Assembly (NCBI GenBank): GCA_964441745.1
Contig: CAYTYR010000003.1
Coordinates: 1 to 35,347, forward strand
Direction: 5' to 3'
DNA length: 35,347 bases
From: an uncultured Clostridia bacterium
GTDB lineage: Bacteria > CAYTYR01 > UBA6262
The notes beneath the pieces are model-generated. The model saw only the letters and a list, made by a program, of their open reading frames with translations, ran no database searches and was not told where the DNA came from. Positions 18,253 through 30,117 of the stretch are shown here, in pieces (the first letter of the stretch is position 1; each line of letters begins with the position of its first letter). The position numbers and the translations under genes are program-made.

Positions 18253-18333
18253 AAAAAAAAAGACCATAAAGAAACTGGTCTTTTGTCCCGGACTCCCTTG
18301 TCCTGTACAAAACATTTGGCACGCCATTGTGCC
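18253..18333 (-). promoter_or_regulatory. ANTAR-type dual hexaloop RNA element plus leader terminator of gdhA
   Basis: GGCAC-AAUGGC-GUGCC, 14 nt, GGAC-AAGGGA-GUCC, then AAAAGACCA-9nt-UGGUC-U9. Confidence 0.85.
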
Positions 18334-18350
18334 GCTGATTTATTATAAAA

Positions 18351-18379
18351 CTTATATCACAAAAAACAATACCTGTCAA
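18351..18379 (-). promoter_or_regulatory. Candidate sigma70 promoter of gdhA
   Basis: TTGACA, 17 nt (ending TGA), TATAAG. Confidence 0.7.
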
Positions 18380-19110: not shown

Positions 19111-19168
19111 AAAAAATCCACCTTAGGTATTTGGTGGACAACATAGTCCGGATAGCTTCTTTGCTATC
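19111..19168 (-). promoter_or_regulatory. Candidate autoregulatory ANTAR element overlapping an SD-sequestering / terminator hairpin
   Basis: GAUAGC-AAAGAA-GCUAUC, GGAC-UAUGUU-GUCC, overlapping UCCACC-10nt-GGUGGA-U6-AUG. TTGACA at 19218-19213 upstream. Confidence 0.68.
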
Positions 19169-27240: not shown

Positions 27241-28476
27241 TTAGAGACCTCCCTTAGTGAATGTTTTCGCCCAGAGCCCGCGGTCTAGTATCGGTTGTAC
27301 TAATTTGCGCTCACTTTTCATCATGGCGGCCCGCATGATACGAAACTCGCCGTATTTTTTATTGATCCGGTCCATTACCCGGTCTACGGCCTGGGTGCTG
27401 GTCAATTCATCCAACAGGTATAACTGCCGTGTCCGGCAGACCAGGTTGGAGACACTGATCCCGATCAGGCGGACAGCCCGGCCTTGCCAGTCAATCCTGG
27501 TAAAGATCTTCCAAGCCTGCTGGTATATATCATAACCGCTATCCAAAAAATAATCAACAGTTAAATGACGGCTAAACGTAAAAAAATCACTATAACGCAG
27601 GATGAGGCAAACTGTCCGGCCGCAATAATTATCCTGGCGCAGGCGGACCGCTACCTGCTCACTTAAAGAAAAAATATTCCGGCGGATCTCGGCAAGATCA
27701 GCAGTGTCGCGCGCCAGCGTATGGGTGTGGCCCATGGATTTGACTGGTAGTTCATCGTCGCTGTAATGCACCGGGGTACTATCCAAGCCTAATCCCATAT
27801 TATGCAATACTTCCCCGATAATGCCAAAGTGCCGGCGCAAAATACTGACCGGATAGCGGCCCAGGTCGCCGCAGGTATAGATGCCGAGGGCGTGCAGGTG
27901 CTTCTCCATCTGGCGGCCCACGCCGCACAGGTCCTTGATAGGAAGACTTTCCAGGGTACTGCGCACCTGCTCCGGCGGGACCAGGACCAGGCCGTCAGGC
28001 TTTTGCATGTCGCTGGCCAGTTTGGCGATCAGTTTATTCGGCCCGATACCGACAGAGCACGTCAAACCCATTTCTGTGACAATAGCTTTTTTGATGGCTT
28101 GTCCGACTTTAAGCGCGTCGTCATACGACAGACAGGTATCAGTGATCTCTAAAAATGCTTCGTCAATGGAAAAAACTTCTGTTTTTACCGAGAACCGTCG
28201 TAAAATACGGAATATCTGGCGGGAAGTGTCCACGTATTTAGCTAAATTGCCGATCACAAAGATCGCTTGCGGACAAAGCCGGCGCGCTTCGCCGATGCTC
28301 ATGCCGGCTTTAATGCCGAAGGGCTTGGCTTCGTAGGAGGCCGCGGAAACAACCGTGCGGGTTTCGGGGTTGCCGCAGACAATGACCGGGCGGCCGCGCA
28401 AAGCAGGATTGGTTTTCTGCTCAACCGAGGCGAAAAACGCGTTCATGTCGATATGTAAGACAATGCGATTGTTCAT
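27241..28476 (-). CDS. dinB: DNA polymerase IV (Y family)
   Basis: LHIDMNAFFASVE, AASYEA, SIDEAF, SVGIGPNKLIAKLASD..KPDG; QLYL clamp motif. Confidence 0.95.
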   Translation of the reverse strand: MNNRIVLHIDMNAFFASVEQKTNPALRGRPVIVCGNPETRTVVSAASYEAKPFGIKAGMSIGEARRLCPQAIFVIGNLAKYVDTSRQIFRILRRFSVKTEVFSIDEAFLEITDTCLSYDDALKVGQAIKKAIVTEMGLTCSVGIGPNKLIAKLASDMQKPDGLVLVPPEQVRSTLESLPIKDLCGVGRQMEKHLHALGIYTCGDLGRYPVSILRRHFGIIGEVLHNMGLGLDSTPVHYSDDELPVKSMGHTHTLARDTADLAEIRRNIFSLSEQVAVRLRQDNYCGRTVCLILRYSDFFTFSRHLTVDYFLDSGYDIYQQAWKIFTRIDWQGRAVRLIGISVSNLVCRTRQLYLLDELTSTQAVDRVMDRINKKYGEFRIMRAAMMKSERKLVQPILDRGLWAKTFTKGGL

Positions 28477-28480
28477 ATGC

Positions 28481-28539
28481 CAGCGATCTGCGTTCAGCAG
28501 TCAGTTGTCAGTTGACAGCGGTCAGCGTTCAGTAATCAG
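28481..28539 (+). repeat. Heptamer tandem repeat array (CAGYNNT x8)
   Basis: CAGCGAT CTGCGTT CAGCAGT CAGTTGT CAGTTGA CAGCGGT CAGCGTT CAGTAAT CAG. Confidence 0.85.
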
Positions 28540-28577
28540 AAAAACTTTAGTAAGAGTGGTACTTGCTGTACGCTGAT

Positions 28578-29183
28578 TTAATATTTGCGAAACACTCCCA
28601 CTACTTTACCGACTATTTGTATCTCCGGGTTAATGATGGGCTGGTACGCGGGATTAGCTGCTTCCAAGCGGAGTTGGCTATGTTTGGTATCGCAGTATAT
28701 TTTTTTGACCGTGACTTCCTCACCGATACGGGCCACGACGATCTCGCCGTTCTCGGTATGGCTGTTAATACGCACCAGGACAAAATCTCCCTCATAGATC
28801 CCGGCGCCGGTCATGCTGTCGCCTTTTACCCGCAGGGCAAAATCAGCGCCATTTCCCAACAGCGACTGATCCAGGTTGACATACCCTTCAATATTTTCTA
28901 TGGCCAGGATCGGGACACCGGCGCGCACCTGCCCCAAGACCGGAATATTTAACAGTCTCTTGGCAGTAAGCCCGGTAATTTCCAGAAAACGCGCTTTAAA
29001 TTTGCCCCGCTTGCGGATATAGCCCTTGGCTTCCAGTATCCGCAGGTAATCCTGCACCGTGCCGATAGATTTGAAGCTGAATTCCTTCATGATCTCCCGC
29101 AAAGTCGGCGGTGTCCCGTTCTCTATTTGAGTATTTTTTATAAAATCTAAAATGGCTTTCTGTTTCTCAGTAAGATTTTCCAT
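28578..29183 (-). CDS. lexA: SOS repressor LexA
   Basis: LTEKQ..IL, PPTLREI, L..KGYI, VRAG cleavage site, GDSM Ser, VTVKK Lys. Confidence 0.96.
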   Translation of the reverse strand: MENLTEKQKAILDFIKNTQIENGTPPTLREIMKEFSFKSIGTVQDYLRILEAKGYIRKRGKFKARFLEITGLTAKRLLNIPVLGQVRAGVPILAIENIEGYVNLDQSLLGNGADFALRVKGDSMTGAGIYEGDFVLVRINSHTENGEIVVARIGEEVTVKKIYCDTKHSQLRLEAANPAYQPIINPEIQIVGKVVGVFRKY

Positions 29184-30031
29184 TAACTTCTCTTTTTCTC
29201 TAAAAGCTTTTTATTTTGAGGGCTTTTAAGATAGTTCTCTTGGGAAACAACTTTTTTGCCGCTTTTGCGCTCTAATTCTTTGCGCGCATTACCAGCCACT
29301 GCCCCACCTTCACAAGCTGCCTTTTTATTCTCATTAAATCCTTGCGCGTTTCTATTAACCGTAATCTCTTTCGTAGAAGCCTCTCCCAGCATAGAGAAAA
29401 TCAATTCCAGATCGTTCATATGGTCCCTGAGGTTCTCTCTCTTTAACCTTTTTAAATTCTTATGTTCGGAAGGAGTCAAACCGAAGGTCGCTCTAGAGAT
29501 TTCCGCAGTCAGGATTTCATACTCTTTAGGTTCTTTTATTTCACGATTTTTCCATTGGTCTGTCAGTTCTTCCCGTATAGCAATCCCACGCATCCGTTTT
29601 TCAATCCAAGCATCGCTATATCCTTTGGCTTTATACAAAGCCCGCGTCCGTTTAGTTGCCAACTCAGGGTCTTCAATCTCCTGAACTCTTTCATAGCCTA
29701 CTTTCGCCAGCCATCTTTTAAACGGTTCAGCTTTAGGGGAAGGGATAGACTGAATAATGCGAAAAATCCCTTCAGTATTAGCACAATCTGTTTCATACTT
29801 TTTGCCATCAGATGACTCTAATTTCAGTCCGTGACAAAACGTCACGATCTCACTTCCTTCTTCTTTTAATCTTTGTTTCAGTTTTCTCCAATATGCACCA
29901 GCGTCAACACTCTCGGTCAATGCCTCGCATACATCTACTACCGAAAACCACCATTCATTATTATACAAAATCTTCCTGATCTCTTTTTTCCTGAAAATAG
30001 CTATCTTGGTAACAGTTATATTTTTGGTCAT
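29183..30031 (-). CDS. Bro-N domain (antirepressor-like) protein
   Basis: EWWFSVVDV, YW.KLK.R, RIIQSIPSPKAEPFKRWLA, NLRDHM; start ATG 30031 with SD; TAATG overlap with lexA. Confidence 0.88.
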   Translation of the reverse strand: MTKNITVTKIAIFRKKEIRKILYNNEWWFSVVDVCEALTESVDAGAYWRKLKQRLKEEGSEIVTFCHGLKLESSDGKKYETDCANTEGIFRIIQSIPSPKAEPFKRWLAKVGYERVQEIEDPELATKRTRALYKAKGYSDAWIEKRMRGIAIREELTDQWKNREIKEPKEYEILTAEISRATFGLTPSEHKNLKRLKRENLRDHMNDLELIFSMLGEASTKEITVNRNAQGFNENKKAACEGGAVAGNARKELERKSGKKVVSQENYLKSPQNKKLLEKKRS

Positions 30032-30117
30032 GTAATCCTTCCTTTTGAGGTGACAATTTGGCACCTCAAGTTTTTAAATTCATTTTCGGGTTTCGACACC
30101 GTTTACCGTCACCCGAG

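Follow-up and report, generated by a model that had tools for sequence, protein, structure and literature searches.

The gene for the NADP-specific glutamate dehydrogenase (GDH) of an uncultured Clostridia bacterium, gdhA, is preceded by a leader with two short hairpins and lies beside a gene for a GAF-ANTAR regulator. This locus raises the question whether the leader is a target of ANTAR proteins and in which direction such proteins would act on it. ANTAR targets are dual hairpins with stems of 3 bp or more; they are defined by 6-nt loops with A at position 1 and G at position 4 (A1/G4) and by a C-G closing pair (PMC7496416, PMC3369931). In the targets of EutV, NasR and AmiR the second hairpin is buried in the terminator and the bound protein excludes the terminator (PMC3369931). 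We analysed the window (the whole stretch of 35,347 nucleotides) together with its 2.07 Mb genome, which is 98% complete, and related genomes.

Architecture and conservation of the gdhA leader

The promoter, the two A1/G4 hexaloops (P1 and P2), the terminator and the upstream GAF-ANTAR gene were all found on the minus strand where the original prediction had placed them, and the downstream gene is gdhA as it had been named, scoring above the NCBIfam cut-off for NADP-GDH (Table 1). It encodes the only full GDH of the genome. The promoter has an extended TG at 18359-58, and a perfect TATAAT is also present at 18347-42. In 4/4 genomes of the genus the -10 box lacks its final T and the -35 box is located 46 nt upstream of P1; in three of them the shared sequence starts at the predicted +1. 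A consensus scan listed neither the gdhA promoter nor the gdhA terminator, since the sixth base of the -10 box is G and the terminator loop, at 9 nt, exceeds the limit of the scan. A lineage-specific seven-base -10 was considered and not seen, with T at position 6 in 52% of 201 TTGAC[AT] sites.

Table 1. Coordinates of the features discussed in the text (window positions unless a contig is given)
Feature	Position	Strand	Details
Sigma-70-type promoter	18351..18379	-	-35 TTGACA 18379-18374; 17-nt spacer; TATAAG 18356-18351
Predicted +1 of the gdhA leader	18344	-	
Segment 1, 5' end	18334..18344	-	weak pairing with linker (P1 extension), -2.3 kcal/mol
P1, GGCAC[AATGGC]GTGCC	18333-18318	-	5 Watson-Crick pairs; C-G closing pair
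Segment 2, 14-nt linker	18304..18317	-	pairs with segment 3 (P2 extension)
P2, GGAC[AAGGGA]GTCC	18303-18290	-	4 Watson-Crick pairs; loop AAGGAA in relatives
Segment 3 and putative vestige of old P2	18271..18289	-	GGAC, 9-nt expanded loop with terminator 5' arm, GTTT
Terminator hairpin	18284-18258	-	AAAAGACCA/TGGTCTTTT; 9-nt loop
Terminator U9 (T9 in DNA)	18261-18253	-	predicted weak intrinsic terminator, 5-bp core plus A-tract
P3, TTTTTGC[AAAGGA]GCAAAAG	18236-18217	-	Shine-Dalgarno in loop; last base directly before ATG
gdhA, NADP-specific glutamate dehydrogenase, 445 aa	18216-16879	-	ATG 18216; NF006929, 783 bits (cut-off 536)
GAF-ANTAR one-component regulator, 236 aa	18400..19110	-	GAF 30-167, ANTAR 178-229
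Autoregulatory leader of the GAF-ANTAR gene	19111..19168	-	P1 loop AAAGAA; P2 loop UAUGUU (U1, G4)
Canonical dual-hexaloop switch before glnA	G000 C11:3296-3200 (L056)	-	
Two identical long leaders, before glnK-amt and before urea uptake/urease operon	G000 C11:18830-18590, 27800-27480	-	

Folding of the 133-nt leader recovered P1, P2 and the terminator as predicted (z -3.48, 0/200 shuffles), with predicted probabilities of 0.97-1.0 for the P1 and P2 hairpins. Rfam gave no match anywhere in the window. A leader peptide starting at the ATG in the P1 loop (482-aa ORF, 18327-16879 on the minus strand, in register with gdhA) was rejected in view of in-frame stops 9 and 19 codons upstream in the relatives G003 and G004.

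We assessed how often such an arrangement occurs in the genome. Dual A1/G4 hexaloops with stems of at least 4 bp were present in only 2 of 1063 upstream regions, those of gdhA and of a type III-like glnA, while 60 dinucleotide shuffles of the upstream regions gave a mean of 0.017 and a maximum of 1. A looser whole-genome scan yielded 8 matches, again including gdhA and glnA. The leader is also strongly conserved. Five of nine genomes of the class contain a gdhA of the window type, and the leader is found in all four that belong to the genus; in the fifth, gdhA sits inside an operon. From P1 to the terminator 5' arm the four genomes of the genus show 0-2 changes in 59 nt, although their gdhA genes differ at 28-43% of four-fold sites, so that on this sequence comparison the element is under purifying selection. 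Loop A1, G4 and the C-G closing pair are kept in P1, P2 and the third hairpin P3 (see below) of 4/4 genomes, and the P1 stem (10/10), the linker (14/14) and the spacer with the terminator 5' arm (14/14) are invariant.

The alignment of relatives' leaders thus bears out the predicted loops at all sites except position 5, which in P1 and in P2 accounts for the only variable positions of the 59 nt. It does not add covariation: we found no compensatory change in any leader helix among the four near-invariant copies, and since the stems are invariant they provide no covariation evidence. No RNA data set was listed among the sequencing runs that contain the genome, which has no bearing on expression. 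Contigs from three sequencing runs cover the leader; the differences listed comprise the known change at loop position 5 and single-base gaps. One of these gaps trims the A-tract to a canonical AAAGAC, in a single contig at a depth of 3.6, and is possibly an error. The linker between P1 and P2 measures 14 nt, a length that reduced induction of eutP (PMC3369931); natural relatives fill the whole range of 8-25 nt permitted by our pattern.

Chance hairpins, or inverted repeats in the DNA that serve a repressor, might produce a similar picture. The NrpR box is GGAA-N6-TTCC, which the DNA of P2 resembles. The stems are short and match no Rfam family, and invariance without covariation equally fits a DNA operator. 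We nevertheless regard this explanation as very improbable, given two matches where 0.017 are expected, a P1 that fits a widespread ANTAR-linked consensus, and two variable positions that both fall on loop position 5. NrpR itself was rejected, no NrpR domain being found in the genome at its 98% completeness. As judged from these sequence features, the hairpins of the gdhA leader are genuine, conserved ANTAR-type sites with predicted ANTAR binding.

Terminator and linker

It had been cautioned that P2 stops about 5 nt short of the terminator stem. This was confirmed and is the key point for the mechanism: a gap of 5 nt separates P2 from the A-tract, and 9 nt lie between P2 and the G-C core of the terminator. 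We modelled the bound state by forcing P1 and P2 in a partition-function model (clamp), which for gdhA covers G000, G004 and G001; the gdhA row of G003 was left out owing to a wrong U-tract. In these three genomes the pairing of the gdhA terminator core is 0.94-1.0 whether the leader is free or clamped. For four glnA leaders the pair adjoining the U-tract falls from 0.96 to 0.00-0.05 upon clamping. Likewise, the probability of P2 in the free state is 0.99-1.0 in gdhA leaders versus 0.00 in glnA leaders. The gdhA leader thus lacks two hallmarks of a canonical antiterminator, namely an overlap between P2 and the terminator 5' arm and a P2 that is unfolded when free. According to the model the canonical "on" mechanism fails for this leader, and since the overlap is lacking we class it as an ANTAR variant rather than as a EutV-type switch.

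The likeness to the EutV-responsive eutP/G/S/A leaders of Enterococcus faecalis (PMC3369931; PMC8934654) lies in two short hairpins with A1/G4 6-nt loops and C-G closing pairs, a predicted downstream intrinsic terminator and most of the RNA-contact residues of the protein. The differences are a P2 that forms without help and stays clear of the terminator core, a third hexaloop on the Shine-Dalgarno sequence (SD), a GAF input instead of a phosphorylated receiver, and gdhA as the target.

The predicted terminator is weak. Its core contributes -4.8 kcal/mol and core plus A-tract -9.1 kcal/mol, nearly double; both arms are invariant, the loop is variable and a U8-9 tract is conserved. Terminator strength models give weight to A-tract features (10.64898/2026.01.22.701115). 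The linker, identical at 14/14 positions in gdhA leaders versus 11-20 of 20-22 in glnA linkers, can pair in two ways: with spacer and A-tract on the 3' side of P2 (-5.2 kcal/mol, matched by 66/2000 linker shuffles) or with the 5' end (-2.3 kcal/mol, reached by 434/2000 shuffles and alone not significant). Pairing between A-tract and U-tract is 0.66-0.71 in the free leader, 0.52 with the 5' end blocked and 0.88-0.91 with the linker blocked, a small shift that makes little difference where only two U are free. The linker balance is, in the model, poised with a small predicted range, and the model is without power to give the sign. A supposed covariation of the helix between 5' end and linker in G001 was rejected: the promoter region there is a deletion junction, and upstream of the -35 box its DNA corresponds to the GAF-ANTAR gene's own promoter.

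These values leave room for a non-canonical form of activation. An ANTAR protein at P2 would stabilise a long P2 (linker with GGACAAAAGA) or break the helix between 5' end and linker, keeping the A-tract out of the terminator, whose 5-bp core would then fail to stop transcription; P3 would be an incidental hairpin that tunes translation. The P2 extension is invariant and overlaps the terminator A-tract, and its energy of -5.2 comes close to that of its two competitors taken together (-2.3 and -4.3), yet a clamp on P1/P2 alone is without effect and the G-C core never opens. Blocking of the 5' segment does lower A:U pairing from about 0.7 to 0.52, but the predicted swing is small. Experiments with EutV can be cited on both sides: a 3-nt linker, as the 5'-end helix leaves, abolishes induction (PMC3369931), and the protein touches only the loop and the closing three pairs (PMC8934654). 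Moreover, P2 and its extension form unaided ahead of synthesis of the terminator 3' arm (P 0.91-0.95), so protein binding would add little towards read-through. An on switch as ancestral state, seen in other lineages, and the positive autoregulatory leader of the neighbouring gene speak for activation, which leaves the lost overlap and the specificity of P3 unexplained. Altogether we consider it plausible but rather unlikely.

A fixed attenuator that is blind to ANTAR, whose terminated RNA of ~90 nt with pre-folded P1 and P2 titrates ANTAR protein, seems improbable to us. GDH would then stem from leaky read-through, and the same terminator may double as the 3' end of the GAF-ANTAR mRNA, no terminator being listed from the stop codon of the regulator to the gdhA promoter. 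P1 and P2 do fold unaided alongside the terminator, G001 retains the leader despite having lost the gene beside it, and sequestration has a precedent in EutX (PMC8934654). A decoy of this kind would need neither an invariant linker nor a hairpin on the SD, and the element was found before gdhA only (4/4 P1 matches of its type). In the known decoy RNAs EutX and Rli55 (PMC8934654) pre-folded hexaloops are similarly presented, including an extra single one; here the hairpins lie in cis in an mRNA leader, and no riboswitch was found by Rfam in the window.

The hairpin over the Shine-Dalgarno sequence and the ANTAR proteins

P3 encloses the SD of gdhA in a third hexaloop. Its stem has 7, 7, 5 and 7 bp in the four genomes, with a C-G closing pair and the loop AAAGGA, and it is kept in all of them despite differing upstream spacers. 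P3 was identified after the fact, and an AAAGGAG SD gives A1 and G4 for free. Still, hexaloop hairpins of at least 5 bp that enclose the SD occur in only 3/407 AGGAG-ATG genes (6/1357 by a looser test), and of 243 SD-upstream 8-mers a single one, its own, pairs with the P3 3' arm over at least 4 bp. The same loop AAAGGA is also the P1 loop of a dual element in locus L175. Formation of P3 costs 0-2.9 kcal/mol as compared with about 5 for P2 of glnA. On its own the hairpin is no more stable than shuffled sequences (34/200), and it is a minor state (0.01-0.05) in 3/4 full-leader ensembles, in which the SD is taken up in pairing by the U-tail. A close partner is lacking: the nearest hexaloop is P2, with its end 53 nt upstream of P3 on the far side of the terminator hairpin.

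ANTAR hairpins over a ribosome-binding site (RBS) are known as Rv1626/PdtaR targets of mycobacteria and other actinobacteria, where they are taken as translational repression (10.1101/660928; PMC8164766), and ANTAR on the RBS halves translation in mycobacteria (10.1101/660928). P3 overlaps the RBS as well. It differs in that the RBS lies inside the dual stem-loop in the mycobacterial type, whereas here a separate third hairpin follows the terminator and the other targets are antitermination switches. Single hexaloops bind ANTAR (PMC8934654); for NasR the affinity of a single hexaloop is about tenfold weaker (12 uM versus 1 uM; PMC7496416). The claim that gdhA is switched on by antitermination was accordingly not upheld: with P1 and P2 clamped, terminator pairing is undiminished, and P3 over the SD points to repression. 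An SD-enclosing AAAGGA loop on a 6-bp stem, lacking a partner hairpin, was also noticed before a purF-like glutamine amidotransferase gene (G000 C8:33610-33629, plus strand), which by its sequence is a second candidate for ANTAR repression.

The genome encodes two ANTAR proteins, the neighbouring GAF-ANTAR regulator and a GAF-GAF-ANTAR paralog. The structure model of the neighbour (pLDDT 88) shows a single long helix that links GAF and ANTAR. PMC8934654 names 11 residues of EutV that contact RNA, of which 7 are identical here (R142, K143, K149, Y164, M172, N173 and R175, mapped with an inferred 2-residue numbering offset); K147 is replaced by R, and E160, R168 and R177 are changed. Its closest named relatives, at 83-92% identity, come from MAGs that carry the title Elusimicrobia bacterium UBA6262 or just bacterium, followed by Planctomycetia and Omnitrophota MAGs at 56-59% identity.

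Protein class and contact residues agree with the proposal that this one-component protein reads the gdhA leader, but its role as the reader is not secure, because G001 keeps the leader without the gene at the locus. There the gdhA leader is intact and the DNA upstream of the -35 box matches the GAF-ANTAR gene promoter, for which reason we conclude that the gene was deleted between two TTGACA promoters. A protein of the GAF-GAF-ANTAR type is the only ANTAR protein found in G001 (91% complete) and in G002. In G003 the GAF-ANTAR copy beside gdhA is truncated and located behind a transposase-like gene, a full copy is present elsewhere, and the leader is intact.

Sensing of a metabolite by the GAF domain had been proposed, and its nearest relatives fit this. 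The best sequence match is EI-Ntr's GAF domain (E 2e-18), and the best fold matches are the PtsP GAF domains 3trc and 3ci6, with the cAMP-binding GAF 5w10 ranking just behind. The top fold matches included no structure with a bound ligand, and those listed none with glutamine. Glutamine inhibits enzyme I-Ntr via its GAF domain (PMC4848567), and since the GAF domain is closest to that of EI-Ntr in sequence and fold, the ligand is probably glutamine or 2-oxoglutarate; the likeness to EI-Ntr (PtsP) amounts to 29% identity only. In 17 sequences the GAF residues S51, T67, Q68, Y74, K81, S121, N138, Y140 and T141 are invariant. A further related system is NasR at the nasF leader of Klebsiella oxytoca (PMC7496416), likewise a one-component ligand-sensing ANTAR protein on nitrogen genes and with a loop consensus (SELEX) identical to the one found here, although its sensor is a NIT instead of a GAF domain and the geometry in our leader is non-canonical.

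The GAF-ANTAR gene has an ANTAR-type leader of its own. Its terminator overlaps P2 and carries on the 3' arm an SD-like AAGGTGG 6 nt before the ATG; the two stems of the leader stand a single base apart. In this leader the pairing at the base of the terminator drops upon clamping. A1 and G4 of P1 are kept in 3/3 genomes, while the other loop bases vary.

A nitrogen regulon and the direction of gdhA control

Canonical switches were found in the same genome by a scan for the motif. A G4 hexaloop overlapped by a terminator occurs 8 times versus a shuffle mean of 0.7, and 6 of these 8 matches precede nitrogen genes (regulator 1, glnA 1, glnK-amt 2, urea/urease 2). In G002 and G003 the same leader is followed by a gene run with glnA, an amidotransferase gene, gltB and gltD. 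The view of the gdhA leader as an ANTAR-type target within a nitrogen regulon was supported; canonical switches lie before glnA(-gltBD), amt-glnK, urt-ure and the regulator. The two identical long leaders consist of tandem hairpin-over-terminator modules with the loops GAUGAA, AAAGGC and GCAGGC, two of which have G1. Part of the duplicated leader has no exact match in 5 genus relatives, which suggests, from sequence comparison, a recent duplication or import. GS-GOGAT, Amt, urease and Urt are all encoded in the genome.

Several observations from the surroundings are recorded here. The nitrogen cluster at G000 C11:13555-27481 comprises urt, urease, two Amt and four PII genes and adjoins an A/V-type ATPase operon; between amt and the next PII gene it contains a lone A1/G4 hairpin with the loop AAGGAA. 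A second glnA paralog (75% identical, G000 C15:43135-40943) has a short leader in which no ANTAR motif was seen. In the window, genes for BRO-N, LexA and a DinB-type polymerase lie in a row at 27241-30064 (minus strand), possibly an SOS mutagenesis cassette.

We compared the leader with other lineages. In metagenomes, among the matches listed (at least 110 distinct ones), the P1-P2 pattern has a terminator that overlaps P2 in 65 cases and no terminator in 43; none of the matches listed has a detached leader as found here. Two that the script had called detached turned out on inspection to be misassigned, L109 because of a U run that comes early and L138 as a chance match in coding sequence. 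Among the matches listed, the window P1 loop AAUGGC is shared with 8/65 canonical elements, and 25/65 have a GAF-ANTAR gene in the locus. Many of them (L059-L177) represent a widespread, highly conserved ANTAR element with the P2 loop AAAGGC in 44/65 of those listed; in 35/65 it precedes a glutamate-synthase-like FMN protein of ~520 aa without NCBIfam family, often beside a GAF-ANTAR gene.

The canonical terminator overlap is present at 15 of 31 gdhA loci; 30 of the 31 belong to the phylum of an Omnitrophota MAG. A credible detached leader was not found in any of the 31, three "detached?" calls of the script, whose pattern leaves out U1 loops and so mislabels autoregulatory leaders, being rejected by eye, and three phylum searches gave no gdhA with a detached-type leader (0/2, 0/31, 0/6). 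At least three metagenomic gdhA loci among the matches listed also carry canonical on switches. We considered whether canonical on leaders before gdhA are confined to genomes without GOGAT; this was refuted, as 10 of the 15 genomes also encode a full GltB, and physiology therefore does not force repression of gdhA. Comparison of the window leader with the canonical gdhA leader L195, in which P2 reads GGAC[AAAGAC]GTTC, suggests that the old P2 may survive as GGAC with a loop that grew from 6 to 9 nt, now the terminator 5' arm, and that the present P2 is a new hairpin upstream.

Our preferred reading, which we hold tentatively and at somewhat short of an even chance, is that the gdhA leader is an ANTAR target in which a formerly canonical antitermination switch was rewired into an off switch. 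We favour repression because the canonical on switches found here sit on nitrogen-scavenging genes and the regulator, because only gdhA departs from this pattern, with its overlap gone and an SD hexaloop acquired, and because reciprocal control of gdhA is known. Increased A:U pairing upon blocking of the linker and a P3 that is rare, conserved and cheap to form count in the same direction. The strongest point against repression is the occurrence of canonical on switches before gdhA in other lineages, 10/15 with full GltB, which makes joint activation of gdhA and GS-GOGAT a common arrangement; in addition P3 is post hoc, a minor state and without a close partner, and the effect on termination is small.

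The repression model makes two assumptions: the ANTAR dimer requires the linker to be unpaired, and it becomes active at low glutamine. With plentiful nitrogen the ANTAR proteins would be inactive, the linker would keep the weak terminator short by pairing the A-tract as soon as it is made, and with much read-through and a loose P3, GDH would be produced. When glutamine falls, an active GAF-ANTAR dimer (either the neighbour or the GAF-GAF-ANTAR paralog, or both) would antiterminate glnA-gltBD, amt-glnK, urt-ure and its own gene. On gdhA it would load P1/P2 and free the A-tract, giving somewhat more termination, and as its main effect it would clamp P3 over the ribosome site. The net result would be that one RNA-binding regulator swaps GDH for GS-GOGAT. 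Expression of glnA/amt with gdhA off in nitrogen limitation, as proposed here, is also found for GlnR of Streptomyces, Nac of Klebsiella and GnfM of Geobacter, which repress gdhA reciprocally (PMC10704036; PMC2995071). These are DNA binders; the gdhA leader would be a counterpart at the RNA level.

A wider reading, which we put forward with more reserve, is that a single ANTAR system acts with both signs on RNA: it would antiterminate scavenging genes, while the gdhA antiterminator became a three-hexaloop repressor through P2 duplication and loop expansion, favouring termination and blocking the ribosome site, driven by a glutamine-type GAF domain. The open-access papers searched contained no ANTAR-controlled gdhA leader, no pro-terminating ANTAR protein, no regulon with both ANTAR signs and no characterised GAF-ANTAR ligand, though gdhA may be among the targets tabulated in the supplements of PMC8164766 and of the bioRxiv papers. 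The string "gdh" is absent from PMC3369931 as far as its main text and seven supplements are concerned.

The ANTAR proteins of most phyla have been described as antiterminators, those of actinobacteria as repressors of translation. If the gdhA leader is activated in a non-canonical way only, it represents a modest geometric variant. An inverted sign would reveal how such a switch on RNA comes to change direction, and dual-hexaloop matches should then not be taken as activation by default. If one system indeed works with both signs, this would be a pro-terminating use of ANTAR and an RNA counterpart of the GlnR/Nac logic, with the steps of the sign change still legible. With two small proteins and four leaders in one genome, the canonical glnA leader among them serving as a built-in control, the locus offers a compact system in which these possibilities may be told apart.
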